Positions 11,623-27,789 of a stretch of DNA of 64,000 bases are shown here, piece by piece (within the stretch, counting starts at the first letter, position 1; each line of letters starts with the position of its first letter). The position numbers and the translations under genes were made by a program. Under the pieces are notes generated by a model. That model did no database searches. It was not told where the DNA came from and saw nothing but the letters and a program-made list of their open reading frames with translations. Origin of the DNA: Pseudomonadales bacterium (lineage in GTDB: Bacteria > Patescibacteriota > Microgenomatia > UBA1400 > PJMF01); contig JACKFY010000002.1 of the NCBI GenBank assembly GCA_020632235.1, forward strand, positions 96,894 to 160,893, in the 5' to 3' direction.

Positions 11623-13776
11623 CTATGTTGCTGGCGCCTCAGGCGACGGCGAGCTGGTGGTTTCTAGATCCTGCGTGGGGTCAGTCTCTTTGTCGCTAGC
11701 ATTTGGAGTTGCTTGCGCATCTATCTCTTCTGTTGTGGCAGGGTCACTGACTGCGTCTTCTGGGTTTTGCAGTGCTTCATTGAGTAAGCTTGGTTGTTCT
11801 ACCGTACTCTCGTCGGCAGCTTGTTCCTGATTTTGCGCTGCTGCCTGCTGTTCTGCCAGCGGCTGTACCTCTCCTAGTTCTTGCTGCACCTGCGCATACT
11901 CTGCGCTCGCAGGGTCAATGAGTGCGAGTGTTCTTTGATAGGCAATGACTGCATTTTGGTAGTCTCCGAGGTTGGCAAGTGAGATTGCAAGGTTATACTG
12001 TGCCTGTGGGTAGTCTGGCTTGAGGTCTGTGGCCTGCGCAAAGAGTTGCGCTGCTTGTGCATACTCTTCTGCGTTAAAGAAGATCGTCGCTAGGTTGTTG
12101 CGCAGAGCAGGGTTGGTGGGGTCAGTTTCTATAGCGGTAATGTAGCTTTGGACAGCAAATTGGTCTGCTCCCTCAATACTGCCGATGAGGTTGGCATATA
12201 TTTGTGCCAAAACTGTCCAATTTTGGGTATCAGATGGGTCCAATATTGTGGCAGACCGAGCTTCTCTGACGGCTTGCGTTATGAGCGTGTTGACCTGTTC
12301 CTGCTCTGCTTGGGTTATATCTTTGTTGCTTGATAGGGCAGCAGCAACCAGGATGTTGCTGGCAGCATACTCGCGCCTCATGTAGTCTAGGTACGGGTTT
12401 AGCTCTACTGCTTTTTGTTGATTGGTGTAGAGACCTACCCCGTCATCATTTTGTGCTGCTTTGGCAGACTCATTCATGTAAAAATGAGCGGCGTAAGCCC
12501 GCCCTGTTTGATAGATGAGCCAAGCCACCAGAAGTAATGGAATAACTCCTGCTGATAGAGAGAGTGCGCGCCTGAGAGTACTTTTAGACGACTGTGTTGT
12601 TTTTGTAGCATGTTGATCGCCATCAAGTAGTTTTACAGAGAATGGATGGAGTTGTAGTCGCCTAAACCTATCTTTTTCGGCTGCCGTATACAACATAATC
12701 ATCAAGGCTAATATGACCAGCAGAACAATATTACTTGGTAGAAACACCTGTGAGATAAACACGGTAGCTATGAGTAGCCCAAGAGCTTTCGAGGAGCTGC
12801 CGCTGTCACCCAGCTGCATAAGAAATGATCCGGCAAATAAAAGGTATGTGGTAACCCCCAAAACCCCCATGCTGACAATGAGTGTGAGCGGGGTGTTTGC
12901 AGCAAAGCCAAACGGTATGTTCCAGGCTGGACTTGTGTTTACAGTGACAGGTTTGTACTGCGTATACGCATTTGTGTACAAGCTACTACCGACACCAATT
13001 ACAGCAGTGCGAGGAGATCTGAGTGAGTCAAGCGCTATTGACCAACTGGTGCTAAAACTGGGGAGTATAACCTCAGCTGGTTTTCCAGGCAGAAGAGACC
13101 AAATATGCACACCTGCTCCTACTAACAAAATGGGCAGAAGCACGAGATGAAGTGTGCTTATTTTTTTTCTAAAGAAAGAAAGACTTATGACGCCAAGTAT
13201 TGAGAGCATAATAACTTCTAGAGATATCAGGGCAGATCCAGTCAGACTAAACACCAGGCTGGATGGGAGAGAGAGACCAAATAGAGCATTGAGTGCTTGA
13301 CTGGGTCCAAATCCAAGTAATTGCAGTGTGGCCAAGACACTTAGAATAGAAGAAGTAATAGCAAGGCAAGTGATAAGTGCTTCTGAAAGGTTTTTTTTAA
13401 TTAAGGATGGGCCGAGTACTCCGATGGCTGCCAGGCCGATGTAGACACCGCCCGCGCCAAGAATATTTTCTTGGGGATACGTAGTGGTAAAGAATGTACT
13501 TGCCGCTGCTGCTAGACCAAATAAAACAAGGGGAAGTGTAAAAGGCCCAGTAATGATCTCTACTGCTTTTATTTTGATTGAACGCAGTGTGTAGAGTGTT
13601 ACTGTGGCGAGTATAAAAAAGAAAAATGTATACAGCTTGGTAGTAGAAACAAAATTATCGGTGATGGGCAGCACAAACAAAATGATGGAGCACATCATGG
13701 CAAAAGAAAAAATAGTCATGAGTGATTGGAGGGCAGAGGCGTGTTTCATAGGCATCATACAGTGTAGTACATACAA
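11623..13776 (-). CDS. O-antigen ligase/polymerase-like (Wzy_C-type) polytopic membrane protein with C-terminal TPR repeats and acidic tail
   Basis: ~10 predicted TM helices over the first ~400 aa; C-terminal TPR-like repeats (AQIYANLIGSIEGADQFAVQSYITAIETDP..; AEEYAQAAQLFAQATDLKPDYPQAQYNLAISLANLGDYQNAVIAYQRTLALIDP); start uncertain (several Met near N-terminus). Confidence 0.55.
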   Translation of the reverse strand: MYVLHCMMPMKHASALQSLMTIFSFAMMCSIILFVLPITDNFVSTTKLYTFFFFILATVTLYTLRSIKIKAVEIITGPFTLPLVLFGLAAAASTFFTTTYPQENILGAGGVYIGLAAIGVLGPSLIKKNLSEALITCLAITSSILSVLATLQLLGFGPSQALNALFGLSLPSSLVFSLTGSALISLEVIMLSILGVISLSFFRKKISTLHLVLLPILLVGAGVHIWSLLPGKPAEVILPSFSTSWSIALDSLRSPRTAVIGVGSSLYTNAYTQYKPVTVNTSPAWNIPFGFAANTPLTLIVSMGVLGVTTYLLFAGSFLMQLGDSGSSSKALGLLIATVFISQVFLPSNIVLLVILALMIMLYTAAEKDRFRRLQLHPFSVKLLDGDQHATKTTQSSKSTLRRALSLSAGVIPLLLVAWLIYQTGRAYAAHFYMNESAKAAQNDDGVGLYTNQQKAVELNPYLDYMRREYAASNILVAAALSSNKDITQAEQEQVNTLITQAVREARSATILDPSDTQNWTVLAQIYANLIGSIEGADQFAVQSYITAIETDPTNPALRNNLATIFFNAEEYAQAAQLFAQATDLKPDYPQAQYNLAISLANLGDYQNAVIAYQRTLALIDPASAEYAQVQQELGEVQPLAEQQAAAQNQEQAADESTVEQPSLLNEALQNPEDAVSDPATTEEIDAQATPNASDKETDPTQDLETTSSPSPEAPAT

Positions 13777-13872: not shown

Positions 13873-14304
13873 ATGAAAAAAACTGGCTTTACCCTTATTG
13901 AAATACTTATTGTTGTGTCTATTATTGGTATCTTGGCGGCTCTTATTGTAGGAAACTTTTTGTCAGCCAGAGAAAGAGCAGCCGATGGAGCCATGAAAGG
14001 AGAGTTGGGTCAGCTGAAAACAGCTCTTCAGTTGTACTACAATGATAATCAGTCTTTTCCTTCCAGTCTTCCAGCAGAAGATCAGCAGTTTTCTGACAAT
14101 GGAACTACCTATATGGGTTCTATACCGAGAGTTGATTACTACGAGCAGCTAGACTCTGGTGATGATTTTCTTTCGTGTTCGGGGCTTGAACGCGCCGCTG
14201 ATGATCAAAAGGTGACACTAGAGAGATGTGATGTTGATGAATCTGTTGTTGAAACTTTGGCTTCTGAGGGAAGAGAAAATCCCTACTGTGTCTGTGCGGA
14301 TTAG
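13873..14304 (+). CDS. type IV pilin / pseudopilin (prepilin N-terminal cleavage-methylation domain)
   Basis: MKKTGFTLIEILIVVSIIGILAALIV class III signal with G|FTLIE cleavage/methylation site; Cys-rich C-terminus; divergent from the ligase-like gene (96-bp shared upstream region). Confidence 0.8.
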   Translation: MKKTGFTLIEILIVVSIIGILAALIVGNFLSARERAADGAMKGELGQLKTALQLYYNDNQSFPSSLPAEDQQFSDNGTTYMGSIPRVDYYEQLDSGDDFLSCSGLERAADDQKVTLERCDVDESVVETLASEGRENPYCVCAD

Positions 14305-17300
14305 TTGATAATCCACCAGTTAAAGGTGACGTCGTTTGATGATGGGTTATCAAAGCCAACGGTAAGTAGCGCCTCATTTTCTAGAGTTTCTGGATTATCT
14401 GTTTGTTGATTTTTGATATACAACACCTGATTGCCTGTACTCCCCACAGGCGTGATGTAGACGAGTGAGTCTTGCGTGAGGCTGCTAGCAATGATGGAGA
14501 GCTCTGTTTGATTACTCTTGATCGTTGCTTTGCCGGAAGAAGCGCTGGTTGCTAGGGGTTCTCCCTCTGGCTGCTGTGTGAAGTCTTGGGCGTTGAGCCC
14601 CAGCTTGCTAAATTGAGCCTCGCCGTCTGCATCAATGCTGGCAACAGCAGTCTGTGTTTCGTCAACAACTTCAAAGCTAGAATCTAGCACCTCGCCAGAG
14701 CTCGTAGCAACGCCGGCCACCTGTACGCGCAGTGGGTTTTCGTACGAGGTGGGTTGGAGTAAGTCTCCCAAGAGCGACCCTTCAACTGCAACGTCACCAG
14801 CAACTGTTAGGTTGCCATCAATTTTTGCCAGACCAGAATCATCAAGAGTGAGGAGTCCTGCCAGTAGCTCAATTGTACCCATTCCCTCTGGCTGAATGTG
14901 CAGGGTGTCTTGACTGTCTGCGGCCTGGTAGCTGAGTACTCCATCTGCCAGTGTGGTGCGCTCGCCAATAGCAATGCTACTTCCCACCCCCAGCATATCT
15001 GAAACATACGCAATACCATTTACATTAAAGTAGGTTGTGACGTACACAGCATCTGGCACAATGACGGTTTCAGTGGCACTGAGGTTTAAGTCCTCAAGAG
15101 AAAGATCTAATTCTGAGGTGCTCACTGGTGTGTAGCCCAGACCTTCTGCAACGCTGGCTGCCGCAGTGGCCGGGGCAGGGTTTTCCGGCTGGATACCACG
15201 AATGATGTCAATCAGGCTTTGCTCATTAAGTGATGAGGCAACTTTGTCATCAAGCCCATCGATGTTTTGTGCATATAATGTACCCGAGACAGTAGCGTTC
15301 ATAAACTCTGCTGTTTGGGCGTTTATCTCTCTCATTTGAGCAATTTCTGTTTCAAGGTAGGAAAGGCGGGCAGACTCTGCGGTGATACTTTCACTTGCTA
15401 AAGTACCCGATATGGTAGCTTCTTGTGCCAGTAATGTGCTCAAATTGGTTTCTTCTTGTACCACTAGGTTGTTGGTGGTCACTGTTTCTGCAGCTACCTT
15501 TCCGCTAAAGGTAGCGTTGCCTTGATTATCTATTTGAGCTACTACACTACCGTTACTATTTTTCACGGCTAGATTATTGATTACAGCATCTTCCGGCAAA
15601 CTTTGGCGTTGTTGTTCAGTATTGATAATCCTTTTAATCATGGACTCGATAGACTCGCCTTTGATAGAAAGAGCAGAGGTGTTCAAACTTTGCACCTCTG
15701 CCGTTTTGGTTACAACCAGCTCTTTAGTGTGTACGAGTCCGGCAGTCATATTCGCAATAAAGGCTTTAGAAGCACCAATGACTGCAGAGAGAGGAGAGCT
15801 GACACCTGCTGGCGTGGCTGTGTACGTGCCGTTTTGTTTTGCAATAATGACTGTGCCGTCTGGTGCGAGTGAGATCTTTTCTAGCTTAGTCAGTTTTGAC
15901 TTGTTGGACATAATAAGTGATTGTTGTTCTTGCACGGCATTCACCAGTACTGCAGTGAGTTGTTTGTACTTCACACCTTCTATTTGGCCATTGGCGTATG
16001 TTGCTAGTAGTGGATCAATTTGTTCTACCTCTTCTGCAACGAAACCAAGATCATGCATGCCATCTGCCTTCCAGTCAAATACAACTGGTCTCAGTTGCAT
16101 TACTTCATTCAGACCCAGGTCAAGGCTTTCAATGTTTTCTTTGTACCTTTGGCTGGAAGAACAGGTGCTTAAGGCATTGAGAGTATTTCTACATACGTCT
16201 GTAGCACCATTAAAAGATAATACACCAAGAAACAGGCCGCCTGTCAATGCGCCATTGCCATTAACATGAAGTGCTTGTGTTGGTGTTACGCCAATTCCTA
16301 ATTGGCCAGAACTATTGATTTCTAGAGCAGTGTTGCTACCTGGAGTTGTGCCGGTGCCAATAAAGAACGAGTCGTCGTTGTCGTTTCCCGCATCATCTTG
16401 CACACCCATCCAAAAGTCAGTATCTGTTGAGGTAGAAGTATCAAATATAATAGAAGAATCTGCTTTATTGAGTGTTAAATCACCACTAAGAGTTCCCCCA
16501 CTTAATGCTAAATATCTGCCGTCGAGCTGAGTTCTCGTGAGTAAGTCACCACCTGCATTATTATCAAGATAGCCTTCTGTACCCAGGTCTGAGTAGGCAG
16601 AAAATGAGTTGTCACTTACAGAGCCACCACTTATAGTGAGGTCATTTGCCACATATGCATCGGCGATTGCACTGCCTTGCCAGGTACCAGTACCAATAGT
16701 CCCCAGTGTCGTAATGCTTGTTTGTCCTGCATAGGTAGAAGCTATTCTCAAACCACTCGCACTCTTTGAAAGCGTAGAGCCATCTAGTTCAAGAGAGAAG
16801 ACAGTGCCAGACTCTTCTATGCCAAGACCATCTGCAGAGTAGGTGGTATTAGTATCATTACTGCCCGTAGCACTAATGGTAATAGTGTCTGTTGTAGCAT
16901 TGGTGGTGATAGTCACATTAGAGCCTGCTGCAAGAGTAAGAGTGTCATTGTTTTGATCAGATACGACGTTTGATTGTCCTGAGACTGCTATGTTTTTAAA
17001 GATGTTTTGTTGTGAACCTCTATCACTGTTGGTAACAGTAAAAGTAGTACCTTCACCAGCACTACCTGATACTGATATACCCGTACCTGCTGCAACTGAC
17101 CCAGCATAGTTGCCAGTGGTGTCAGTACCAAGAGCTACTGCATCAGGTTGGATAACAACACTGCCTAGTCCTGTTCCTGCTACATCACCTGCAATATCAA
17201 TAGCAGCTTCTAGTGTGCTTTCTGTAGTGGCATCAATACTATCAAGACCATTGAGGGTACCTGTTCCTGCAAGGTTGATGGTAGTAACAGTGTCTAGTAC

Positions 17301-20243
17301 TGTCTCTAGACTAAAGGTAGTGCCTGTAAGATCTAGATCACTCCCCGCAGAGTAGGTAGTATCACTATCAGTACCAGTGATAGTGAGGGTGTCACCAGTG
17401 ATACTGGTAGATATACTGCCTGCACCAGCAACAGTGAGAGTATCTGTAGTTGTGTCTGCACTGGTACTACCTGTATCTGCAGTGAATGTCTCCCACAAGT
17501 TCTGTGCGCCAGGAATACTAACCCAATCTACACCACTACCAGTAGAAGAGAGTACTTGACCACTTGTACCTACATCTCCATTGATGTCAGTGAGTGTGCC
17601 ATTGAGCTCTAGATCACTGTCCAAATCTACAGCACCTGTGAATCTACCAGTGCCATTGACATCGAGTTTGTAGGTAGGGGTGTCATCATTTATTCCTACA
17701 TTGCCATTTAAGTCTATTCTCATAAGTTCGTCATTGGCACTTGCATATGAGTTGCGAAAGATATACCCATGCTGGGCATCCAAAACCATATTGGTTCCTA
17801 TTCTTTGAAGAGAAAAGGTATTGCCTGTTATATAAAGCGCACCAGCTTGATTCGTGCCTCTTAACGTATTTCCTATAAAATCAAATCCATTGCTCGAAGC
17901 ATTTCGGTACTGAAAACTGTCTGATGTTAATGCAACTGCTGTTGGGCTTCCAGAAAAAAACTCTTTCTCCGGATATCCAGAACTTAATCGGATCGAATTG
18001 CGCGCATTTAAATGTAAGTACGTTGAAGAACCTGAATCATAAATTCTGCTAGAGCTACTCCCAAACTTTAAAGTTCCATCGCTCTTTATGTGTAAATCAG
18101 CTGTTGGATCAGTTACCCCAATTCCAACGTTGCCACTATTCGAGTTGTAAATATTATTCCCGTTTGCTGTCCAAAGACTTCCACCTCCGACTGCGTTATC
18201 TACATAGTCTTTTGTAGTCACAACCGTTCCTATATCACCGCTGACTGTTGATTGCGAGCGGATTTTGCCGTTCACGTCGAGTTTTGAGGCTGGGGTGGTG
18301 GTACCAATCCCCACACTCCCACTCGTATCAATCCTCATCCTCTCACTGCCATTTGTTTCGAAGGCTAGTGAGTTGTTGTCATTAGTACCAAGTGTGGCCA
18401 GGCCGCCAAAGCTATTGCCGTCTTGTTTGTAATATGTTGGGTCTAGAGTTGTACTAATACTGGACCATGCAGTGCCGGTGCCGGTAGATGAAAGGATTTG
18501 CCCACTGGTACCTGCTGATGAAGTGTTATCTATAAATGCGCCAGTTACTTCCAGATCTCCCGCAATGGTGCTGTTGCTATTAAGATTTATCTCTCCTGTG
18601 CCATCAGGACTCAAGTCAATATCGCCATTACTGCCAGCACCAGTTTCAAGCAATAATGACTGAGCGGTAATAGAAAACGTGCCAGAGTCAGATCTGATAG
18701 AGGGGGAGACTTCACCTAGTACTACCTGACCGTTGTCGTTCATGGTGAGAATGGTATTGACAGTGGCAGACTCGCTGGCGTTGATGGGGAACCCTTGGAT
18801 AGTCTCGGCGTTGAGGGCGTAGGCTACTGCTTTGATGGGCTGACGAGGGGAGAGGGTTTCGCTGGCAACAGTGACCTCCAGGTACACACCGGCGTTTTCG
18901 GTAAAGACATCTTCTGCTATTTCGCTGCCACACTCGTCACCCAGTCCTGTTGAAAATATGCCATCTTGGTCGGGGGTAACACTACACGCGCCAGAATCCC
19001 ACAGCTGCGTGCCTCCACTCGGGGAATCAAAGAGCTTAAACTGCATGTTGGTGGCTGTAGTGATGGGGGTTTGAGCAGTATCAGTCAGCCTACCCTGAAA
19101 TGAGAGCGAGCGGGTGGGGCGGGTGGGGGTGGAGGGGTAGGCGAGGGAGGGTATTGTTTCTCTAACGAGTTGCTGGTACCCAAAGAAGCCCATGAGCCCC
19201 AATAGGAACACAATAATACCAAAGTTGACAAAGCTAAGCCCCCGAGAAAACACATTTTTCTTGGTATCTGAGTGCAACTCAGCAATTCGTTTTTCAATTA
19301 CCAAGTTTGTTTTTTCCTGTTCTTCCCAGTTTTTTTGCACTTCAGCGGAGTAAAGTGCATCAGGAGGGACAACTTCTGGAGTGTCTTTTTTTTCAGTATG
19401 ATTACTAGCTTGATAGTTGTCCTCAGCCTCTTGTTGCTCTATTTTCTGGATCGTATTTTTTGGTCCAAGAGTAGGCCAATTATTTTCTTGTACTCTTTGT
19501 GTATCAAAAGAGTCTTTAGTAGGTACATATGTACTCAGTTGACTGGTAGCTATGTTTGGTTTTTGTTCACCAGAATAAAAACCATAGTGTTCATCTTGAC
19601 CATTTTTAAAAGAGGTCAACCAACCAAATGAATCTTTGGATATGTTGTTGTCTCTCATCCAGTAGGCAAACTGGGAAATGCTTGTTAATTTTCGTGTGAT
19701 GGTGTTCTCAGAAAGTCCCTTGCTTTTCTCATTTTTGAGGAATTTTGATAGTTTGGTTCTTGTGATAACCGGAGTGTTCGTCTGAGCTGGCGAAAAAGAT
19801 AAAAACTGCTTGATATCACTTTTATAATTTTTAATAGTTCCCTGCGAGCAGCCGGAGTCTTTGAGTGCTAAAAGGTACTCCTCCAGATACATCTCTCCCC
19901 AAGTATTAGGAAGTTGTGCTAAAAATCGTTGCAGAATGCTCCTCAACCTAACCGAGATCCCCCTATTTTTCATTTTTTCTTCGGATATATGGATTAGCTG
20001 TTTTGGGGAGTTTTTATCAGTAAGCTCTGTAGATGCGTCAAGGAGTACCTGAGAGATAACCTCTTGGTCTTCAGCGCTCATCAATTGCTGTGAGTAAAAG
20101 CGAGCTGCTTTTGCGTGCACAACTTGGAAAATGGGGGTATGGGTAGGCATGATTATTGGTGTAGTAAAAACGTGTAATCCAGGCTTAATAGACCGTATTG
20201 CAGATATGTAACTAGGATATCTTGATTCAAGAGAGGTAGTCAA
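14301..20243 (-). CDS. giant (1980 aa) single-pass surface protein: cytoplasmic integrase-N SAM-like domain, TM helix, phage tail-fibre-like repeat region, internal S74 (endosialidase intramolecular chaperone)-like domain, ~500-aa C-terminal extension
   Basis: Residues ~100-210 resemble XerC/D N-terminal SAM-like core-binding domain (EEYLLALKDSGCSQGTIKNYKSDIKQFLSF); TM ~334-357 (FVNFGIIVFLLGLMGFFGY); repeats GSVGIGTTTPASKLDVNGKIRS / GNVGINDDTPTYKLDVNGTGRF / GNVGIGVTDPTADLHIKS; S74-like block SSQRYKENIESLDLGLNEVMQLRPVVFDWKADGMHDLGFVAEEVEQIDPLLATYANGQIEGVKYKQLTAVLVNAVQEQ at residues ~1363-1470 (nt ~15836-16157); possible later start at MSAEDQ (nt 20081). Confidence 0.75.
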   Translation of the reverse strand: MTTSLESRYPSYISAIRSIKPGLHVFTTPIIMPTHTPIFQVVHAKAARFYSQQLMSAEDQEVISQVLLDASTELTDKNSPKQLIHISEEKMKNRGISVRLRSILQRFLAQLPNTWGEMYLEEYLLALKDSGCSQGTIKNYKSDIKQFLSFSPAQTNTPVITRTKLSKFLKNEKSKGLSENTITRKLTSISQFAYWMRDNNISKDSFGWLTSFKNGQDEHYGFYSGEQKPNIATSQLSTYVPTKDSFDTQRVQENNWPTLGPKNTIQKIEQQEAEDNYQASNHTEKKDTPEVVPPDALYSAEVQKNWEEQEKTNLVIEKRIAELHSDTKKNVFSRGLSFVNFGIIVFLLGLMGFFGYQQLVRETIPSLAYPSTPTRPTRSLSFQGRLTDTAQTPITTATNMQFKLFDSPSGGTQLWDSGACSVTPDQDGIFSTGLGDECGSEIAEDVFTENAGVYLEVTVASETLSPRQPIKAVAYALNAETIQGFPINASESATVNTILTMNDNGQVVLGEVSPSIRSDSGTFSITAQSLLLETGAGSNGDIDLSPDGTGEINLNSNSTIAGDLEVTGAFIDNTSSAGTSGQILSSTGTGTAWSSISTTLDPTYYKQDGNSFGGLATLGTNDNNSLAFETNGSERMRIDTSGSVGIGTTTPASKLDVNGKIRSQSTVSGDIGTVVTTKDYVDNAVGGGSLWTANGNNIYNSNSGNVGIGVTDPTADLHIKSDGTLKFGSSSSRIYDSGSSTYLHLNARNSIRLSSGYPEKEFFSGSPTAVALTSDSFQYRNASSNGFDFIGNTLRGTNQAGALYITGNTFSLQRIGTNMVLDAQHGYIFRNSYASANDELMRIDLNGNVGINDDTPTYKLDVNGTGRFTGAVDLDSDLELNGTLTDINGDVGTSGQVLSSTGSGVDWVSIPGAQNLWETFTADTGSTSADTTTDTLTVAGAGSISTSITGDTLTITGTDSDTTYSAGSDLDLTGTTFSLETVLDTVTTINLAGTGTLNGLDSIDATTESTLEAAIDIAGDVAGTGLGSVVIQPDAVALGTDTTGNYAGSVAAGTGISVSGSAGEGTTFTVTNSDRGSQQNIFKNIAVSGQSNVVSDQNNDTLTLAAGSNVTITTNATTDTITISATGSNDTNTTYSADGLGIEESGTVFSLELDGSTLSKSASGLRIASTYAGQTSITTLGTIGTGTWQGSAIADAYVANDLTISGGSVSDNSFSAYSDLGTEGYLDNNAGGDLLTRTQLDGRYLALSGGTLSGDLTLNKADSSIIFDTSTSTDTDFWMGVQDDAGNDNDDSFFIGTGTTPGSNTALEINSSGQLGIGVTPTQALHVNGNGALTGGLFLGVLSFNGATDVCRNTLNALSTCSSSQRYKENIESLDLGLNEVMQLRPVVFDWKADGMHDLGFVAEEVEQIDPLLATYANGQIEGVKYKQLTAVLVNAVQEQQSLIMSNKSKLTKLEKISLAPDGTVIIAKQNGTYTATPAGVSSPLSAVIGASKAFIANMTAGLVHTKELVVTKTAEVQSLNTSALSIKGESIESMIKRIINTEQQRQSLPEDAVINNLAVKNSNGSVVAQIDNQGNATFSGKVAAETVTTNNLVVQEETNLSTLLAQEATISGTLASESITAESARLSYLETEIAQMREINAQTAEFMNATVSGTLYAQNIDGLDDKVASSLNEQSLIDIIRGIQPENPAPATAAASVAEGLGYTPVSTSELDLSLEDLNLSATETVIVPDAVYVTTYFNVNGIAYVSDMLGVGSSIAIGERTTLADGVLSYQAADSQDTLHIQPEGMGTIELLAGLLTLDDSGLAKIDGNLTVAGDVAVEGSLLGDLLQPTSYENPLRVQVAGVATSSGEVLDSSFEVVDETQTAVASIDADGEAQFSKLGLNAQDFTQQPEGEPLATSASSGKATIKSNQTELSIIASSLTQDSLVYITPVGSTGNQVLYIKNQQTDNPETLENEALLTVGFDNPSSNDVTFNWWIIN

Positions 20244-20684: not shown

Positions 20685-21446
20685 ATGAGAACTACAACCG
20701 AAAAACTACTGCTTTTGACGTACCCTAGTACCCAAGAAGCCCGTGGAGTACCACTTGATACTTTGGCGCTGCTACTTCCAGATCACGCCCCAGAGGGGAG
20801 GAGGTCGCTCCTCTACTATCTAGAAAAACAAGGGTACGTTTCACTTGTGGAAGCTGGTGAAACTAGGCAGATCATCCTCTTGGATAGGGGGACGAGGCAC
20901 GTACATGATCGTTTTCCGTCTTTTTCTACAAATAATGATCAGGAGTGGGTGATAGTGATGTTTCGCACTGCTCCAAAGGCAGATGCACAGTTTCGCTACC
21001 TAAGGTCACTTCTCATGCAGAGAAGGGCAGCGTGCATCCAGTCGGGAGTGTACCTACTGCCAAGTAACTCTTTTCAGACCATCCAGCGTGAGCTGCAAGT
21101 AAAGTACGATGGGTCAGTCTTGGTTGCCGAGGTTGGACGGTGGATATTCGGATCTTCCAGCACTATAGGATTGGACTACTTTCATCTAAATGATGCGCTT
21201 GTTAACCTCTCAAGTATTAGCAGAGATATAAACACTATGCTAGAAAAAATAAACAGTAAAAAAAGATTGACCAGTAAAGTAAAAATGGACTATTTATCAA
21301 TTGTAGATAGGTACTATGCGGTGGTAGATCAAGACTCAGGTGCAACCAAGTATTGTTTTCCCGAGAGCAAAGGGGTAGGGCAGGTATTGGTAGAGTTGCA
21401 AAATCTTCACCACACACTTTCGTATTATTATCGCATATCAAAATAG
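20685..21446 (+). CDS. PaaX-like winged-helix transcriptional regulator (N-terminal wHTH plus PaaX_C-like domain)
   Basis: N-terminal LLLLTYPS..LLYYLEKQGYVSLVEAGETRQIILLDRGTRH wHTH pattern; C-terminal WVIVMFRTAPKADAQFRYLRSLLMQRRAACIQSGVYLLP resembles PaaX_C. Confidence 0.45.
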   Translation: MRTTTEKLLLLTYPSTQEARGVPLDTLALLLPDHAPEGRRSLLYYLEKQGYVSLVEAGETRQIILLDRGTRHVHDRFPSFSTNNDQEWVIVMFRTAPKADAQFRYLRSLLMQRRAACIQSGVYLLPSNSFQTIQRELQVKYDGSVLVAEVGRWIFGSSSTIGLDYFHLNDALVNLSSISRDINTMLEKINSKKRLTSKVKMDYLSIVDRYYAVVDQDSGATKYCFPESKGVGQVLVELQNLHHTLSYYYRISK

Positions 21447-22216: not shown

Positions 22217-24214
22217 TCACTGTGCTGCAAGCAGCAGACTGTTGTTGGTAGACTCCATGAGACGATATCCATATTTGTATGCCGTAAGTGTTTGGTCTTT
22301 GTAAGCGAGGCGTGCGGAGCCGTTTTTATCGGTGATATAGATGGCTGTGGTATCTCCATTTTGGCCGGTGTACGTTATGCAGTGCGAGATGCCAGCTCCT
22401 GATTGGTCAAAAACTTTGATAAAGGGACCTTTTCTTTTTCGCACTAGCACAACACCAACGCATAACAGGTAGAAAACGAACACAATGCCATTAATGAAAG
22501 AAGGGTACAGTATGGTAATCCCTAGTGAAAATAAAAACCAAAAGAATCCAGAAACTCCTCTGGTAGCGGAAAACATCACGAGCGTCACTCTACGTAGTCT
22601 GTGCGCATGCATCTGTACTTCACAGGGAATACTAAGAACGCTTTCTTGAGTTGTTTCCAGCAACTCTCCTTTGTAAAACTGGTGATAGTTAAGGTAGGTA
22701 GGTCTCTCTTCCATGGTAGGAAACTGGGCGTAGGCGTCATCTATTTCTAGAGAGTATGCACCTGTTGGCACGAGAGGAAGTCGCCCGTCTTCATTAGAAA
22801 AAACAAGGGTTTGCTCTACTTCTTCACCTGTATCGCTATACTTCTTGTAAAGAACTGGCATAAAACTAGCTGGCTTGCCAGAAAATACATCAAATACAAG
22901 ACTGGGTCTTTTTCTTGCCAACAATGGAGCGCACACGGCGCTGAGTGCTGCCAGCATCCCTGCAATACTCGTCTGCAGACCTAGTATGCCGGCTACGACA
23001 AGTGTTTTTAGTAGTGCAAACATGATGAGGGTGAGTGGTAGAGCATATGACCACCATGTTAGCTGGCTTTTTTCTTCATCTTGCGTACTTGATTGAACTT
23101 CGCTACTTGGTGCAGCTTGAATTACTTGGCTGTGAGGTTTCATTCCAGGAAGAAGCAGGGGCGGAGTGACTAGGGGAGTAGTGATTGTTTCCAGCAGCGT
23201 TACTTCTTTTGGTGGTTGACTGCTGCCCACTTGTTCTTGACCAGCACTTGATGGAGAAGGTTGTAGGGTCCAAGGCGGTTTCCACCAAGGTTTTGGCGTG
23301 ATGTCTGGAGAAGGAGAAGGGGTAATGTACGATATCACTGGATTGGAGGGGTTGGGGGTTGGGGGAGGGTCGATCTGTGGTGCTTCTTCGTCATGAATGT
23401 AGATGGGAAAGTGCTCTATTAAGGAAATATTCCCGACTGAGTCGGTGATGGTAAAGCGCAAAAAAATGACAGAGTTTTTAGGAACATCAGGTAGTGAGAG
23501 TAGCCAGTTGGGACTAGTCAAAACAAACATTGTAGGGGTGGCTACTTCTACCCCTCCCCTGGTAAAAGAAACAGTGACCTGAGATCCCGTTTCGCCAGAG
23601 CCTCTCAACACCTCATTATCGTCCCAGAATTCTAGTGGTGATGTAGGCACGCTGGCAGTATTTTGCGATGTGGTGGCGAGTGAGTAGTTGCCCGCTTGAG
23701 TGATAATTAGGTATGGAGTAGTTGCATCCACCGTAAGTTGCCAAGAAGCAGAGGTTGTTTGATTGCCCGCAGCGTCAACTGCGGTGACTGCCCAGGTGTG
23801 ACTGCCATCAGGCACGATTTTATTACTCTGTAGCGTGTATATGTTGTCAACAGCGTTGTACGTAACAGTAAATAACCCAGCTGCTGTATCTGTAATGGGT
23901 ATACCGCTCAAAAATGGGGAGCCATCAACTACGATGGTATATGAAGAAATACCAACGTTATCACTTGCCCCATACCAAGAGAAAATAGGCGTGTTGTCAC
24001 TGGTGACAGTACCATCTGCAGGAGTAATGAGCACAGGCGTGCTGGGTGCTACCACGTCAGGCACGCTGCCACGCACATTTGTTCCATATGTTGACGTGCT
24101 TGTTTGGGCTACTACACCAACAATGTTGAAGGTGCATAGCAGTACAGCGCTTAATCCTAGAATAAGGCTCAACTGCACTCCCTGCTTCATAGCAACCACC
24201 TCTCTTGAGAGCAT
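22217..24214 (-). CDS. secreted/membrane surface protein with N-terminal Ig-like domains, Pro-rich linker, TM helices and a C-terminal domain
   Basis: signal peptide region LSLILGLSAVLLCTFNIVGVVA; Ig-like blocks (TPADGTVTSDNTPIFSWYGASDNVGISSYTIVVDGS.. repeated); PPPTPNPSNP / PSPSPDITPKPWWKPPW linker; hydrophobic helices around LTWWSYALPLTLIMFALLKTLVVAGILGL. Confidence 0.55.
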   Translation of the reverse strand: MLSREVVAMKQGVQLSLILGLSAVLLCTFNIVGVVAQTSTSTYGTNVRGSVPDVVAPSTPVLITPADGTVTSDNTPIFSWYGASDNVGISSYTIVVDGSPFLSGIPITDTAAGLFTVTYNAVDNIYTLQSNKIVPDGSHTWAVTAVDAAGNQTTSASWQLTVDATTPYLIITQAGNYSLATTSQNTASVPTSPLEFWDDNEVLRGSGETGSQVTVSFTRGGVEVATPTMFVLTSPNWLLSLPDVPKNSVIFLRFTITDSVGNISLIEHFPIYIHDEEAPQIDPPPTPNPSNPVISYITPSPSPDITPKPWWKPPWTLQPSPSSAGQEQVGSSQPPKEVTLLETITTPLVTPPLLLPGMKPHSQVIQAAPSSEVQSSTQDEEKSQLTWWSYALPLTLIMFALLKTLVVAGILGLQTSIAGMLAALSAVCAPLLARKRPSLVFDVFSGKPASFMPVLYKKYSDTGEEVEQTLVFSNEDGRLPLVPTGAYSLEIDDAYAQFPTMEERPTYLNYHQFYKGELLETTQESVLSIPCEVQMHAHRLRRVTLVMFSATRGVSGFFWFLFSLGITILYPSFINGIVFVFYLLCVGVVLVRKRKGPFIKVFDQSGAGISHCITYTGQNGDTTAIYITDKNGSARLAYKDQTLTAYKYGYRLMESTNNSLLLAAQ

Positions 24215-24234
24215 CTAGTAGAAGATAGCCGTTT

Positions 24235-25278
24235 TTATGCTTTCTTCTTGTTTAGTTTTGACTCTAACTCAGCAATGCGAGCGTCTCTGTCATCTTGGCG
24301 GTGCAGCATATGTCTTCGAACACTCACCATAGCAGCAATAAGGGCAAGAAGAGCTACCAGCACTGCTGTAATAAGCTTGACAGGCAAGAGCCAGAAAGAA
24401 GACTGAGCCATAATAACTTGTCCATTTTGACCGTAGTTTGCGGTTAGCTCGGCTGAGTATCTACCTGTTCCCCAAATAGCATCCCATTCACCAGAGAACA
24501 TTTTTTCTTTAAGGGGGAAGATATTTTTTGAACCACCATCGGGACTCTCGACCTCAAACGATGCCACCTCATTACCCCACATGCTTGTAATAGTCATCTT
24601 TAATGTGGGATTGATGTGAATATCAGATTGATTTTCGACAGTAAATGAGTACGGAACGGGACCAAACTCACTCAGAGAGGGAAGTGAAAAGTCTCTAATA
24701 AAGGCCTGTTCATTGATGGCACCATCAACTACGACATATAGGAGGGTTCCTACTTCTTGTTTTACCGCACTCTCATTTTCACTATCAACGGTTTGTGTCT
24801 GGCCAACAGGGGAGTGAAGGACCATTGCGTAGTGACCGCCAGGAAGGGCATCACTTGGTGCTTCAATAAGCACGTATACGGCAACTGTTTCTCCTGGTTG
24901 AATGGTCTGACCGCTTGGTGTAATGGTGAGCCAATCACTCAGCGCCCATCTATTTGACGTTTCCTCGTCTACCGGAAGAGGGGTGGTGCCATCTTCATCA
25001 ACAATAAAATCACGCGCGAGACTGGTGATTTGGATGGGGTTTGTCGAGGTATTACGCACGCGTAGCTCGACCTGCTTTTTTTCTCCTGGTTGAAGTGTGA
25101 GCTCTCTATTTTCTCCCTCTCTAGGAGGGATAGCAGTTAGTGTGGCTACTTCAGCAACAGCATTCTGAGTTGTTGTAGTGGGCTCGGCTTCTTGTGCCAA
25201 GGCTGGGGTGACAAAAACACCGCATGCCAGAGCTACTACCACAGCTGATCTTTTGAGTGAAACGAGGGCAGGTTTCAT
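24235..25278 (-). CDS. DUF916/DUF3324-like (WxL-locus CscB-type) cell-surface protein: signal peptide, two beta-rich domains, C-terminal TM anchor plus basic tail
   Basis: MKPALVSLKRSAVVVALACGVFVTPALA signal; LTLQPGEKKQVELRVRNTSTNPIQIT pattern typical of DUF916; C-terminus LLPVKLITAVLVALLALIAAMVSVRRHMLHRQDDRD. Confidence 0.5.
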   Translation of the reverse strand: MKPALVSLKRSAVVVALACGVFVTPALAQEAEPTTTTQNAVAEVATLTAIPPREGENRELTLQPGEKKQVELRVRNTSTNPIQITSLARDFIVDEDGTTPLPVDEETSNRWALSDWLTITPSGQTIQPGETVAVYVLIEAPSDALPGGHYAMVLHSPVGQTQTVDSENESAVKQEVGTLLYVVVDGAINEQAFIRDFSLPSLSEFGPVPYSFTVENQSDIHINPTLKMTITSMWGNEVASFEVESPDGGSKNIFPLKEKMFSGEWDAIWGTGRYSAELTANYGQNGQVIMAQSSFWLLPVKLITAVLVALLALIAAMVSVRRHMLHRQDDRDARIAELESKLNKKKA

Positions 25279-25301
25279 TACGTATTCCTTTCTTGAGTTT
25301 T

Positions 25302-26741
25302 TTAGAATGTGGCGGTTGCTCGATATGTTACGTTGTTTTCATACTCTCCTGCTTGCGTAGTCACAGCAGGGATAATGCGGTAGCACACGTCAAGGTTTTG
25401 GTTATCAGCCACTGTTGTTCCAGAGAAAATCTGAACAGGAGTTTCGGAGTTTTGTGCATCAGCAAAGTGTTTGGTAGAGAATGTGCGACTTGACTCATTA
25501 TAGCTAAATGCCTCAGTGGTAGTAGCACTTACGTCATGGAGTGAGTAACCAAAGCCTTTCTTGGTAGTATCAGAGCCCCATTCTGCTGAAGTTGTTTGGC
25601 TAATTCCACCCACATCTTCAAATGCATCTTGAATACAATTTGGATCGCCAGCGCTCGTTGGAGTAGCATTCGTACAGCCATCACCGTCCTTGCTCATTTG
25701 ATCATCTTCAATGGCGGTTACAACAAACCCTCCAGCAGCATTTGTAGAGACGGCTAGATTTTGGGCTGCTTGAGCAAATGAAGCGAGGCTCAGAGGACCA
25801 AATGGAACGGCAGTGGGAGTCGTGGCAACGGTTGTTGCTACTCCACAGCGACTAGCACTACTTGCTACGCCAGTAATAGTGAAGGTGAGCTGTGGATCAA
25901 CGCTAGCAGTAATGCGAACGGACTCGATAGTACCTACCGATACTGTGGTGCTGTCAATAACAGATGAAGAGTTATCTAGATTTTGTACAATAATTTTGTG
26001 CGAATCGGCCGTGCCTTCGGTGTGTGTTGCCGTGGGAGCAGGATTAATGAGGCCATTAATCACCATAGGGTTGGCAGCAAAACTAGAGCTTGTTGCGCCG
26101 GTTCCAGTGTATGGACAGGTAAAGCTATGATACAGCTGACTATTGATAGTTACTGCGCCAGCAGATGCAGCTGCAGTCCCAAAAACATAGGTACTACCAA
26201 CATCAGATGGACAAGTGACCGTTGCGCCAGCAGAAGTAAAGTCCCAAAAACCAGCGTCAGGATTGTCATCATTATTATTGCTTGCAGCAGCAGGAATAAG
26301 TACGCGGAAAGAGCCCGCATTTACCGCATTTGCAGTAGTAAATCGAACTGAGAGATCAGCTGACTGTGGTGAGTAGATGGTGTCTCCTGCAGTCTCATCT
26401 CCTGAAACAATGCCAGATCCAAGTTCGAGCGTGTCTGCATCAGACACGTTCTGTACGGTATATGAGTTTCCATTTATAACGATCGTATCATTATTTTGAA
26501 TACCAGCAGTAGAGACAGAAGTTCCGGTAGTAGGAGTAGTGTCTATGCCCAAAATACTTGATCCAACGGTATTTCCACTGCCCACTTCACCGAAGAACGA
26601 CAGGCGGGGAGTAGAGAGCGTAACGGAAGTATTGGTTAAACTAGCAGACTCACTTTGGTGGGAGAAGGCTGTAGCCCCCATGAGTAGCACGAGGATGCCC
26701 CCGATACATGCGCGTTTTGTAGATGAAGAGAGTGACAGCAT
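25302..26741 (-). CDS. secreted protein with C-terminal WxL-like domain (Tyr-variant motif), N-terminal Thr/Gly-rich beta region
   Basis: signal peptide MLSLSSSTKRACIGGILVLLMGATAFS; C-terminal EWGSDTTKKGFGYSL...QAGEYENNVTYRATATF-end shares the GFGY and AGEYExxΦxY(T/R)A blocks with the 247-aa neighbour and resembles the terminal aGxYxGxltWtLxxaP of WxL domains. Confidence 0.5.
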   Translation of the reverse strand: MLSLSSSTKRACIGGILVLLMGATAFSHQSESASLTNTSVTLSTPRLSFFGEVGSGNTVGSSILGIDTTPTTGTSVSTAGIQNNDTIVINGNSYTVQNVSDADTLELGSGIVSGDETAGDTIYSPQSADLSVRFTTANAVNAGSFRVLIPAAASNNNDDNPDAGFWDFTSAGATVTCPSDVGSTYVFGTAAASAGAVTINSQLYHSFTCPYTGTGATSSSFAANPMVINGLINPAPTATHTEGTADSHKIIVQNLDNSSSVIDSTTVSVGTIESVRITASVDPQLTFTITGVASSASRCGVATTVATTPTAVPFGPLSLASFAQAAQNLAVSTNAAGGFVVTAIEDDQMSKDGDGCTNATPTSAGDPNCIQDAFEDVGGISQTTSAEWGSDTTKKGFGYSLHDVSATTTEAFSYNESSRTFSTKHFADAQNSETPVQIFSGTTVADNQNLDVCYRIIPAVTTQAGEYENNVTYRATATF

Positions 26742-26852
26742 AAATAAGACTTTGTTTAAATTTTAGTACGTACAACCAAAATACTAGATAGATTTTGAGT
26801 GACACGCAAGTACTAAAAATTAGGTGGAGTGATGAGGAGTATGTTTTTAGGC

Positions 26853-27785
26853 TTAGTACTCGGTTGATGTTGTGGGCTGCTTTTGCTTCTTGTAGGTAAA
26901 AATTAAGATGCAGATGATGCATGTAGCTACAAAGAGCAGTGAGAAGGGAGCGGCAATAACGATGTATTCGGCGCTGTGTGTTTGTCCAGAAGGGTTTGAC
27001 ACGAGTAATGTTTGTACGCTGTACACTCCAAATAGAGGTGGAGAAACCACCATTTTTTGCATGGGTTTTGTTTCCTCCGAGAGGGGTTCGTCAGTAAAAA
27101 ACCGCAGCGGTCTACCACTGAAAGCAAGCGCAGCGTCTGGATAGATGTTGTAATGACCAATAGTGCTACCTCTCCAGTTTGTAATTTCTGCTGCGCCAGA
27201 TGCTTCTTGGGTGAGTGAGGCTGTGTTAGTAAGCCACCCTGAAGTCTCGATAGCTTGAAATGTGTCTACCACTTTTGGCAGGTGCAGGTGCGCCTCTAGT
27301 GCTGGCAGCACCTCTCCATCATCAATAGAAATAATAATGTTGCTGCCGATGACATTTTGTACTCTGGGTGCCCCAGAGGCTTCTGAGTCTGTTTGAAATA
27401 ACACAGTCAAATGGTACTCATTTTGTGCAGCCGCTTGATCAACAGTTATGGGAATCGTAATAACTCTTGACTCTGTTGGTGTAAGAGAGATGGGCTCTGT
27501 AAATGATGTGCTAGAAAAGTAGGGAAAGCTCGTGTGATCAGATAGAATGGGTTGTCCTGTTTTATCGCTTGCTGTAAAGTCTACTGCTGCTGGGGTGATG
27601 ATAAGCTCGGTCAAGCTATTGTTTGTGATGATTATCTCAACTGCGCGCGATTCTCCTGGATTTAGAGCGATATATTGAACAGGAGGGGAAACAGTAAGCG
27701 AGCTGTTAGCCTTCACTTCACTGTTTGGTTGGATAAGGAACAACCCCAGTGCGAGACAGAAAGAAAAACAGAGCTTTTTGATCAT
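26853..27785 (-). CDS. DUF916/DUF3324-like cell-surface protein (paralog of 24235..25278), C-terminal TM anchor
   Basis: start taken at MIKKLCFSFCLALGLFLIQP (track ORF extends to 27854, overlapping upstream gene); SLTVSPPVQYIALNPGESRAVEIIITNNSLTELIITP; C-terminal VIAAPFSLLFVATCIICILIFTYKKQKQ. Confidence 0.5.
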   Translation of the reverse strand: MIKKLCFSFCLALGLFLIQPNSEVKANSSLTVSPPVQYIALNPGESRAVEIIITNNSLTELIITPAAVDFTASDKTGQPILSDHTSFPYFSSTSFTEPISLTPTESRVITIPITVDQAAAQNEYHLTVLFQTDSEASGAPRVQNVIGSNIIISIDDGEVLPALEAHLHLPKVVDTFQAIETSGWLTNTASLTQEASGAAEITNWRGSTIGHYNIYPDAALAFSGRPLRFFTDEPLSEETKPMQKMVVSPPLFGVYSVQTLLVSNPSGQTHSAEYIVIAAPFSLLFVATCIICILIFTYKKQKQPTTSTEY

Positions 27786-27789
27786 AGTA

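Follow-up and report, generated by a model that had tools for sequence, protein, structure and literature searches.

A giant Microgenomates protein combining a recombinase-type core-binding domain, a putative tail-fibre-like surface fibre and an internal S74 domain

In phages, the S74 chaperone lies at the C-terminus and is discarded once cleaved. The chaperones of phage endosialidases, tailspikes and T5 pb1 share their Pfam family, fold and Ser-Lys dyad with the giant protein described here, and in both a fibre stalk precedes the domain; in the giant protein, however, S74 is embedded in a predicted continuing fibre, and the protein is chromosomally encoded with a predicted membrane anchor. 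The MAT fibres of Bdellovibrio bacteriovorus, like the family to which the giant protein belongs, are cellular, non-viral, tail-fibre-like surface proteins (PMC10769870; 8ond, 8ojn, 8ol4, 8oml). They are trimeric, surface-exposed and mosaic, and self-cleave at SDxxxK if S74 is present (Caulton et al. 2024, PMC10769870). Direct sequence matches show that the GxVGIGT..P..L.V repeat grammar is common to MAT fibres and the giant protein; in both groups the domain nearest the cell is conserved and the distal part is mosaic and variable, many members have S74 with a dyad of the SDxxxK type, and recognition of another cell is the proposed role. MAT fibres carry a signal peptide as well as a conserved N-domain of ~130 aa; the family instead has a recombinase core-binding (CB) domain in a cytoplasmic part of ~335 aa, a TM anchor, and a different, Ig/macroglobulin-like domain. 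S74 is C-terminal in S74-type MAT fibres but internal here, followed by a conserved module of ~520 aa, and the two groups come from different phyla with different envelopes.

Eukaryotic MYRF is, like the giant protein, a type-II membrane protein in which a DNA-binding domain (DBD) is joined to an internal ICA domain, with several hundred more residues beyond the latter (PMC3742440, PMC8326128). The order in MYRF is DBD-ICA-TM, so that cleavage frees the DBD; in the giant protein it is DBD-TM-fibre-ICA-C-module, so that cleavage would be extracellular and the DBD could not be freed. The DBDs are unrelated (Ndt80-like in MYRF, a recombinase CB domain here). The ~100-aa CB domain is shared in sequence and fold with XerC, XerD and IntI, but tyrosine recombinases have a catalytic domain and the giant protein does not. 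The CPR Pam pilus locus (Troman et al. 2026, 10.64898/2026.03.03.709456) matches the neighbourhood, with PamT-like and Pam-pilin-like genes upstream here. According to that preprint, pam operons are consistently accompanied by a 'tail fibre-like protein', which it does not analyse; this protein is a putative counterpart of the family. The giant protein has no detectable homology to Pam proteins.

The features of the locus, within a window of 64,000 nucleotides, are given in Table 1. An earlier note had claimed an ORF of 1980 aa. The ORF exists and has this length when read from a TTG start; the start is ambiguous between this codon and the ATG of M32. Base composition is uniform along the gene, and no DNA-level tandem repeat was seen in it. 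With an architecture common to full-length homologues, this leaves no sign of the assembly chimera that the note had considered; the gene is real, and 'chimeric' describes it as an evolutionary domain fusion, not as an artefact.

Table 1. Features of the giant gene and its neighbours (window coordinates)
Feature	Coordinates	Strand	Basis
Polytopic (~10 TM) membrane protein, C-terminal TPR repeats	11623..13776	-	conserved neighbour
Type IV pilin/pseudopilin-like gene, 143 aa, convergent	13873..14304	+	N_methyl motif, GspG/PilA/ComGC N-terminal matches
Giant ORF, 1980 aa	14301..20243	-	stop TAA 14301-14303; start TTG 20243 or ATG 20150
C-terminal module, family-conserved, aa 1461-1980	14304..15863	-	homologue alignment, AF2
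S74/ICA domain	15864..16157	-	PF13884, AF2, Foldseek, dyad conservation
Variable Ser/Thr/Gly-rich tail-fibre-like stalk, aa 641-1362	16158..18323	-	PDB and PHROG sequence matches
Ecto1, conserved juxtamembrane ectodomain, aa 363-640	18324..19157	-	121/121 sequences, AF2, Foldseek
Juxtamembrane helix and single TM helix, aa 298-362	19158..19352	-	Kyte-Doolittle, AF2 helices
Cytoplasmic linker, low confidence, aa 215-297	19353..19601	-	pLDDT <50
SAM-like CB domain, aa 109-214	19602..19919	-	PF02899, AF2, Foldseek
Cytoplasmic leader, not conserved, aa 1-108	19920..20243	-	phmmer
PaaX_M-like protein, 253 aa, divergent	20685..21446	+	weak PaaX_M match, E=7.8e-4
Pam-like pilus operon, upstream	22217..28533	-	NCBIfam matches

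The giant protein belongs to a large Microgenomates (CPR/Patescibacteria) family that evolves fast. Its N-terminal module recurs, always N-terminally, in at least 634 protein clusters at E<=1e-30, and relatives are encoded by 182 species-representative genomes, mostly labelled Microgenomates/Patescibacteria. Members reach 7697 aa and follow one plan from N to C: one or two copies of the SAM-like domain, a TM helix, an invariant juxtamembrane domain of Ig/macroglobulin type, a mosaic fibre that is hypervariable, S74 as an optional element, and a conserved C-terminal module of ~500 aa. The ends are conserved and the middle is variable. Relatives are named 'tail fiber domain-containing protein', 'site-specific integrase' or 'XerD' in databases, the latter two names being misannotations.

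The leader is not conserved: in a phmmer search of 121 sequences with aa 1-100, the query matched itself alone. HMM matches to the SAM-like and S74 regions had been set beforehand as the test on which the domain assignments could fail; both exceed the Pfam curated thresholds. Phage_int_SAM_1 (PF02899) matches aa 120-196 (E=4.6e-8, 33.7 bits; gathering cut-off 22.3), and the model of the domain (pLDDT 92–95) resembles the core-binding domains of IntI (2a3v), lambda Int and Tn1549 Int (Foldseek probability 0.96–0.99), bearing out the earlier assignment of residues ~100-210. NCBIfam XerD/XerC models match it through their N-terminal ~85 positions only. As had been noted, no catalytic domain follows: Pfam finds no Phage_integrase domain in the protein even at E<=1, and the protein therefore cannot recombine DNA. 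The SAM-like domain is basic (median net charge +6), with invariant N139, Y140, S142, D143, R184 and K185; its conserved C132 is the only Cys outside the ectodomain. It is kept in most members and absent from about one-sixth of the homologues listed, some of which have just a short cytoplasmic tail, so the putative DNA-binding tail is dispensable for the fibre. The linker varies from 28 to 140 aa across homologues. A Kyte-Doolittle scan gives one TM segment, in the same position in 106 of 121 family members; its hydrophobic core spans aa ~336-354, within an AF2 helix at aa 333-362. The single helix proposed earlier thus stands, but its placement moves, and the cytoplasmic part grows from the ~230 aa claimed to ~335 aa.

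Directly outside the membrane, ecto1 is present in all 121 sequences with many invariant columns and is modelled well (pLDDT 85–91). It resembles macroglobulin/Ig-like domains (Foldseek probability up to 0.99, E only 1e-2). Its β-sandwich (aa 380-464) carries the invariant pair C420/C438; the other ectodomain Cys pair is C1351/C1361. The tail-fibre character claimed for the stalk is backed by matches to solved structures of MAT prey-recognition fibres from Bdellovibrio (8ond, E=8.8e-7; 8ojn, E=6.4e-6) and to phrog_677 (tail fibre connector; aa 692-985). The picture of a ~1000-aa extracellular region built from GxVGIG repeats does not hold, as only four GxVGIG..P..L.V motifs were counted (aa 642, 704, 847 and 1313), set within the mosaic region. 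The stalk is poorly conserved in the family, with matches in 10 of 121 and 1 of 121 sequences, and its monomer model is poor (pLDDT <50).

Peptidase_S74 (PF13884) matches aa 1363-1411 (E=4.1e-10, 40.2 bits; cut-off 22), where the protein has the motif S1363-S-Q-R-Y-K1368-E-N-I, in agreement with the S-x-x-R-x-K-E-N-I consensus reported earlier. The best solved-structure match of the model (pLDDT 73–94) is the MyRF ICA domain 7dc3 (Foldseek probability 1.0). Among viral proteins, the fold search gave 98 matches at E<=1e-3, and named phage ICA/S74 matches superpose with an rmsd of 1.6–3 Å at 26–41% identity. Among 40 homologues, the dyad Ser is kept in 39 and the Lys in all. Some 612–618 residues run from S1363 to the C-terminus, ~520 of them beyond the S74/ICA domain, and in homologues S74 always lies 500–770 aa ahead of the C-terminus. 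The internal position of S74, with ~500 aa behind it, is thus a constant family trait, which makes the earlier idea of a processed two-fragment product plausible. As a new arrangement it is real but not unique, with hundreds of clusters in the family and a eukaryotic precedent in MYRF.

The C-terminal module contains helical/coiled-coil segments, a beta-rich part and a final β-sandwich (aa ~1889-1980) ending FNWWIIN. The terminal domain is modelled at pLDDT 77–91, most of the remainder at <50 in the monomer. More than 350 aa of the module align in 67 of 120 homologues, reaching their own C-termini, with invariant columns; searches for it in other protein contexts found none. The module also occurs in members lacking S74; its function thus needs no release, and cleavage may not mean separation.

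The pilin and giant genes converge with overlapping stops, as claimed: TTAG at 14301-14304 reads TAG on the plus and TAA on the minus strand. The pilin neighbour is kept in L001, L002 and 8 of the 13 loci where the DNA extends far enough downstream. The TPR-protein gene lies downstream in 9 of 13 loci, and loci of Woesebacteria CH104c and Levybacteria have it as a neighbour too; a weak Wzy_C match is recorded for its L003 orthologue only. Upstream, the PaaX-like gene is present in 51 of 62 loci and its product is a possible locus regulator. The Pam-like operon encodes PamT-like (247 aa), 333-aa, pilin-like (479 aa), 347-aa and Big_13 (665 aa) products. The matches to CPR_pilus_PamT (E=4e-11) and CPR_Pam_pilin_C (E=8e-3 in the window, 6e-7 in the L001 orthologue) are below the curated cut-offs. 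Four of the five products have an N-terminal hydrophobic, signal-like segment, none being detected in the 479-aa product, and those of 333 and 347 aa have a C-terminal TM segment.

At least three Pam-like genes lie upstream of the giant gene, on its strand, in 48 of 62 loci. The giant protein could accordingly be read as a pilus component, either an anchor or platform for a donor-strand-exchange pilus or the source of a tip adhesin through an S74-released C-terminal trimer. The preprint found no machinery dedicated to assembling Pam pili across the envelope, and it has the tail-fibre-like protein as a central neighbourhood node (10.64898/2026.03.03.709456), and ecto1 and the terminal knob have Ig-like or β-sandwich folds. 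We nevertheless consider such a role unlikely: HMMs of the knob and C-module match no Pam-operon protein (85 loci and the window), a divergent gene stands between operon and giant gene, L003 and L004 have few or no detectable Pam-like genes (the upstream flank of L003 ends at the record edge), and trimeric fibre symmetry has no obvious fit to a linear donor-strand polymer.

The basic DNA-binding fold, with its invariant residues, retention in most members and duplication in some, would also suit a protein devoted mainly to signalling. Such a one-component regulator, tethered in the membrane, would sense contact through its giant ectodomain and control transcription or some DNA transaction through its CB domain, comparably to ToxR/CadC and, loosely, to MYRF, which pairs DNA-binding and ICA domains in a type-II membrane protein (PMC3742440, PMC8326128). 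This too appears improbable, since members without the SAM-like domain exist, no conserved DNA motif resembling an operator was found upstream, and the PaaX-like protein is a separate candidate regulator conserved at the locus. It is hardly credible that the gene is a tail-fibre gene of a phage or prophage, or that misassembly or a frameshift fused an integrase fragment to one. The database names and weak matches to PHROG tail and integrase families are contradicted by flanks made up not of phage genes but of housekeeping genes (Rho, Obg, M23 peptidase, LeuRS) and surface-appendage genes, among which no capsid, terminase or tail gene occurs, by recurrence of the same fusion with its TM helix at a syntenic chromosomal site across hundreds of clusters and 182 species, by the absent catalytic integrase domain, and by even composition without tandem repeats.

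We therefore favour, with some reservation, a membrane-anchored, tail-fibre-like surface fibre of type-II (N-in) topology, most likely a homotrimer. The basic SAM-like domain would be cytoplasmic and the one TM helix would act as signal anchor, with the Ig/macroglobulin-like domain and its one Cys pair directly outside the membrane. From there the Ser/Thr/Gly-rich mosaic stalk, its repeat grammar common to phage tail fibres and Bdellovibrio MAT fibres, would extend outward to the S74/ICA domain, and the conserved ~520-aa module would prolong the fibre to the β-sandwich knob. The ICA domain would guide and check trimer folding and then probably cut the chain before S1363 through the S1363/K1368 dyad. 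The predicted products are a proximal membrane-bound fibre (aa 1-1362) and a distal trimer (aa 1363-1980, ~65 kDa per chain), which would be shed or kept by a non-covalent hold. The CB domain is most likely DNA-binding, but what it does is the least certain step: it may fasten the base of the fibre to the nucleoid, or serve as a membrane-bound regulator like ToxR or RodZ. At the cell surface, the hypervariable stalk would provide specificity or reach, and the fibre would join the adjoining Pam-like pilus and the type IV pilins in making adhesive contact to a host cell or surface. As the family usually adjoins a Pam-like pilus operon, it is a candidate host-contact device of these bacteria.

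The 1980-residue product of the giant gene is best read as an adhesin fibre, probably a trimer, that is anchored in the membrane in the type-II orientation. The open reading frame is uninterrupted and its codons are counted from a TTG start; an ATG first appears at codon 32 (position 20150), and no ribosome-binding site clear enough to choose between the two starts was found. The pilin gene converges on the giant gene and both stops use the tetranucleotide TTAG at 14301–14304, the overlap that the earlier note had described.

Features of the giant-gene locus (window positions)
Feature	Position	Strand	Remark
TPR protein	11623–13776	-	~10 TM helices, C-terminal TPR repeats
Pilin gene	13873–14304		converges on the giant gene
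Giant gene	14301–20243	-	1980 codons
PaaX_M-like (Cas2-like) protein	20685–21446	+	253 aa, weak match; divergent from the giant gene
Pam-like five-gene operon	22217–28533	-	NCBIfam matches; giant gene's strand
Second fibre-like gene	32377–35151	+	924 aa

The cytoplasmic region contains a SAM-like core-binding (CB) domain of the recombinase type. Residues 120–196 match Phage_int_SAM_1 in Pfam (PF02899, E=4.6e-8, 33.7 bits against a cut-off of 22.3), and the Phage_integrase catalytic domain (PF00589, R-K-H-R-H/W-Y) is absent from the protein even at E≤1. The XerD, XerC and XerA models of NCBIfam align over the first ~85–91 positions only. Where recombinases have the catalytic domain, the SAM-like domain is followed by a linker and then a transmembrane (TM) helix. 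AF2 with family alignments models the domain as a five-helix bundle (pLDDT 92–95). In the PDB, Foldseek matches this fold to the CB domain of the integron integrase 2a3v (rmsd 2.4–3.3 Å over 82–94 residues, probability 0.99) and also to the core-binding domains of lambda Int and Tn1549 Int. This fold search told more than the profile of the N-module (SAM-like domain, TM helix and juxtamembrane ectodomain), whose Xer-like matches among PDB sequences were weak (E 0.014–0.06). The domain is basic, with a median net charge of +6, and the residues invariant across the family include N139, Y140, S142, D143, R184 and K185, which sit in two motifs that align with Xer recombinase motifs. An alignment of three orthologous intergenic regions gave no conserved operator or dif-like motif 5' of the giant gene. 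Fold, charge and invariant residues suggest that the cytoplasmic CB domain may bind DNA, and nucleoid tethering or membrane-bound regulation would be its likeliest role; these are the least certain parts of our interpretation. About one-sixth of the listed relatives do without the domain, some having only a short cytoplasmic tail, and it is thus an add-on to the fibre.

The hydropathy scan of the protein gives one TM segment, residues 336–354; a single segment at the corresponding position is seen in 106 of 121 sequences (the query and the best 120 of 219 homologues). The earlier note had correctly claimed a SAM-like domain without a catalytic domain and a single TM helix, and had placed that helix too early, after ~230 residues; by the TM position the cytoplasmic region is ~335 residues long. 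There is no N-terminal signal peptide, this region and the TM helix standing in its place. The juxtamembrane helix, the TM helix and a β-sandwich formed by residues 380–464 are modelled confidently by AF2 (pLDDT 85–91). The β-sandwich resembles macroglobulin/Ig-like domains in the PDB, with Foldseek E-values of 1e-2 or weaker. The ectodomain contains every cysteine but C132, which is conserved in the SAM-like domain. These ectodomain cysteines form two pairs: C420/C438, invariant throughout the aligned family, and C1351/C1361. The distribution of charge and cysteines fits the proposed topology.

The ectodomain had been described as built from GxVGIG-type repeats. The motif GxVGIG..P..L.V occurs in only four copies (at residues 642, 704, 847 and 1313) and does not make up the ectodomain, and a search of the giant gene for a tandem DNA repeat found none. 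The only convincing PDB sequence matches are to fibres of Bdellovibrio bacteriovorus, namely Bd2133 (8ond, E=8.8e-7) and 8ojn (E=6.4e-6), with weaker matches to 8ol4 and 8oml (E~3e-3). A tail-fibre-connector PHROG matches weakly at residues 692–985. The Bdellovibrio proteins are the mosaic adhesive trimeric (MAT) fibres, surface-exposed trimers involved in prey handling, with a conserved cell-proximal domain, a β-helical stalk and diverse tips; in 13 of 21 the terminus is an S74 domain that cleaves itself and has an SDxxxK motif (Caulton et al. 2024, PMC10769870). They carry a signal peptide, where the giant protein has its cytoplasmic region and TM helix, and then a conserved ~130-residue N-terminal domain, to which the juxtamembrane ectodomain of the giant protein may or may not be related. 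A regular-expression search of the giant protein for the MAT capping-loop motif V-G-G/N-pi-x-x-P-x-x-x-L gave zero exact matches; the GxVGIG motif with its four copies is related to it. The stalk (residues 641–1362) and most of the C-module (residues 1461–1980) have pLDDT below 50 in the AF2 model, which is of the monomer only. Because of the MAT sequence matches and the weak PHROG match, a cellular phage-derived adhesin fibre is the closest functional analogue.

The S74 domain follows the stalk. Pfam matches Peptidase_S74 (PF13884) to residues 1363–1411 (E=4.1e-10, 40.2 bits, gathering score 22), beginning with the motif S1363-S-Q-R-Y-K1368-E-N-I, in which Ser and Lys are five residues apart as in the S-D-x-x-x-K type. 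The domain is modelled at pLDDT 73–94 and its best solved match is the intramolecular chaperone (ICA) domain of MyRF, 7dc3 (Foldseek, PDB, probability 1.0). Against predicted viral structures there are 98 Foldseek matches at E≤1e-3; among these, named Peptidase-S74/ICA proteins superpose with rmsd 1.6–3 Å at 26–41% identity. Pfam match, SSQRYK motif and MyRF-like fold all support the S74 block recognised in the earlier note. Its internal position, also given there, is confirmed as well. The phage-type S74/ICA is a C-terminal domain that is released as a small chaperone. In the giant protein, ~520 residues follow the domain (~500 had been estimated), and in each complete S74-bearing homologue the site lies 500–770 residues from the C-terminus. 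The dyad is kept in homologues in which the domain is detected (Lys in 40/40, Ser in 39/40). Kept dyad and position argue for retained catalysis and for a fixed order of fibre, ICA and C-module. An internal ICA domain has a precedent in MYRF, whose ICA precedes a TM helix and a luminal domain, and whose cleavage sets free the N-terminal part as a trimeric transcription factor (PMC3742440, PMC8326128). In MYRF, the DNA-binding domain and the ICA are on the same side of the membrane and cleavage frees the former; in the giant protein, by contrast, the TM helix separates the CB domain (residues 109–214) from the ICA domain (residues 1363–1460).

The C-module ends in a β-sandwich (residues ~1889–1980, pLDDT 77–91 in AF2), the knob. 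With the region from S74 to the end as query, 67 of the 120 homologues (best 120 of 219) gave an alignment longer than 350 residues that ran on to the homologue's own C-terminus, and some of these lack S74. Since members lacking S74 retain the C-module covalently, it must work while attached; in S74-bearing members, the two fragments may stay associated or may be shed. The C-module alone retrieved 14 matches, mostly short or partial sequences and apparently fragments of the same family.

A homologue search over 5.8 billion proteins gave 219 matches, of which the best 120 span 1287–3439 residues; PF02899 is found in most of these 120 and PF13884 in many. Named source organisms are Woese-, Pace-, Levy- and Collierbacteria or 'Patescibacteria'. 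Searches with separate segments show conserved ends and a hypervariable mosaic middle.

Segments of the giant protein, each searched against the query and the best 120 of 219 homologues (n=121)
Segment	Residues	Matched in	Remark
SAM-like domain		99/121	two copies in some
TM segment		75/121	phmmer
Juxtamembrane block	375–640	121/121
Stalk	640–1000	10/121
Stalk	1000–1350	1/121	query alone
S74 domain		40/121
C-terminal block	1470–1720	42/121
C-terminal block	1720–1980	78/121

Among 1.84 billion cluster representatives, the N-module profile matches at least 634 proteins at E≤1e-30, of up to 7697 residues and all with the N-module near the N-terminus, and 182 genomes encode a relative in a scan that took one genome for each GTDB species. 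These results show a large family of very long proteins, among which the giant protein is small. The largest relatives, of 5000–7700 residues (P0160, 7697 aa; P0167, 6346 aa; P0139, 6192 aa), are among the largest proteins that can be expected in genomes of ~1 Mb. At one locus (L005, 8001–22546), a 2809-residue giant gene is followed by a second of 2039 residues with many LamG/DUF2341 domains, the two overlapping by 4 nt. At others, L055, L053 and L034 for example, the N-module frame stops after 825–1332 residues and C-module matches lie further downstream, a pattern that points to genes split or frameshifted in some branches of it. A relative of both N- and C-module is located at 618–1775 (L069), at the very start of a complete genome labelled candidate division TM6/Dependentiae (CP011212.1); this is either a true occurrence outside Patescibacteria or a labelling issue. 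The record titles of many contigs with a CPR-type locus (L006–L085) read 'uncultured Pseudomonadales bacterium', while others name Limisphaerales, Methylococcaceae or Vitreimonas; such titles look like taxonomic mislabelling. Public names of relatives are 'site-specific integrase', 'XerD', 'RodZ', 'tail fiber domain-containing protein' or hypothetical. The first two, frequent in public records, are wrong, as the catalytic domain is absent, and inflate counts of mobile-element genes in CPR genomes.

The giant gene lies in a conserved chromosomal locus for surface appendages, which is no prophage and joins the gene to two pilus systems. Rho, an M23/LysM peptidase, Obg, the TPR protein and the pilin gene are on one side. 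The TPR protein is the most widely conserved neighbour, and it and Rho adjoin the giant gene also in the complete genome of Woesebacteria CH104c and in a Levybacteria contig. Neither a Wzy_C nor an O-glycosyltransferase identity was detected for it with Pfam or NCBIfam; the L003 orthologue alone has a precomputed, weak Wzy_C match, a lead for the idea that the TPR protein might glycosylate the Ser/Thr-rich fibre or the pilins. The PaaX_M-like protein may be the locus regulator. The operon encodes proteins of 247 (PamT-like), 333, 479 (Pam-pilin-C-like), 347 and 665 residues (Big_13). The 247-residue protein matches CPR_pilus_PamT (E=4e-11), and the 479-residue protein and its orthologues match CPR_Pam_pilin_C (E=8e-3 to 6e-7); because all matches are below the curated NCBIfam cut-offs, these are distant Pam relatives. 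By hydropathy, all the products except the 479-residue protein (4/5) have signal-like hydrophobic N-termini, and the 333- and 347-residue proteins have C-terminal TM helices, as do PamC and PamD. Pam is a donor-strand-exchange pilus of Saccharimonadia and Microgenomatia whose chaperones bear C-terminal TM helices (2026 preprint, 10.64898/2026.03.03.709456). The gene order of the window recurs in two orthologous loci (L001 and L002). Among genome-scan loci with at least 8 kb upstream, three or more Pam-like genes are present in 48/62 and the PaaX-like gene in 51/62; with at least 3 kb downstream, the TPR protein is present in 9/13 and pilin in 8/13. The second fibre-like gene of the window encodes an N-terminal TM helix (residues 24–42) and a weak H-type lectin match, and lacks SAM-like and S74 domains; a stretch of it is 33% identical to residues 605–864 of the giant protein (tblastn E=2e-18).

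By analogy with S74 proteins and MAT fibres, the giant protein would trimerise, cleave itself before S1363, and be exposed on the surface with a role in host or substrate contact. A more elaborate reading, a trans-envelope coupling device with two functions, seems to us doubtful. The CB domain would link what happens at the fibre tip, or the position of the fibre, directly to the chromosome, so that contact could control genes, or the nucleoid could be tethered at the attachment pole, with no separate signalling proteins. The S74 cut would split the fibre, giving a non-covalent two-part 'breakaway' tether or freeing a conserved distal trimeric factor onto the host. A role as an integral component of the Pam-like pilus is improbable: synteny speaks for it, but a divergent gene intervenes between giant gene and operon, the protein has no NCBIfam Pam match, and HMM searches of all ORFs of the 85 loci and the window found no homology of knob or C-module to Pam-operon proteins (the only other match was the second fibre-like gene, E=0.029). 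A mainly signalling role is similarly improbable. A phage gene or assembly fusion, the chimera that the earlier note had considered, is contradicted by even base composition along the whole gene, lack of tandem repeats, housekeeping neighbours and an architecture that recurs in homologues; on these grounds we reject assembly chimera and prophage origin.

To return to the adhesin fibre, relatives are known for all its modules, and Bdellovibrio already provides a case of cells that carry adhesin fibres derived from phages. New are the cytoplasmic recombinase core-binding domain combined with a TM anchor, a juxtamembrane domain that is invariant in the family, the placing of S74 internally and ahead of a conserved C-module, and the fixed association with a Pam-like operon in an uncultured lineage. 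We found no description of the family in the literature; the only candidate mention is one line in the Pam preprint, whose neighbourhood network has 'a tail fibre-like protein' consistently co-localised, with no analysis given, which is possibly a member (10.64898/2026.03.03.709456). Two features are odd: the cytoplasmic tail of a surface fibre is a recombinase core-binding domain put to another use, and a putatively self-cleaving S74 chaperone is located in mid-fibre, not at its end. We know of no cultured member of the Microgenomates. A central question is by what means uncultured CPR bacteria find their hosts and keep hold of them, and for it the family is a concrete host-recognition candidate: large, near-universal in the lineage, hypervariable in the middle, conserved at the ends, and locked in the genome to a Pam-like pilus and type IV pilins.
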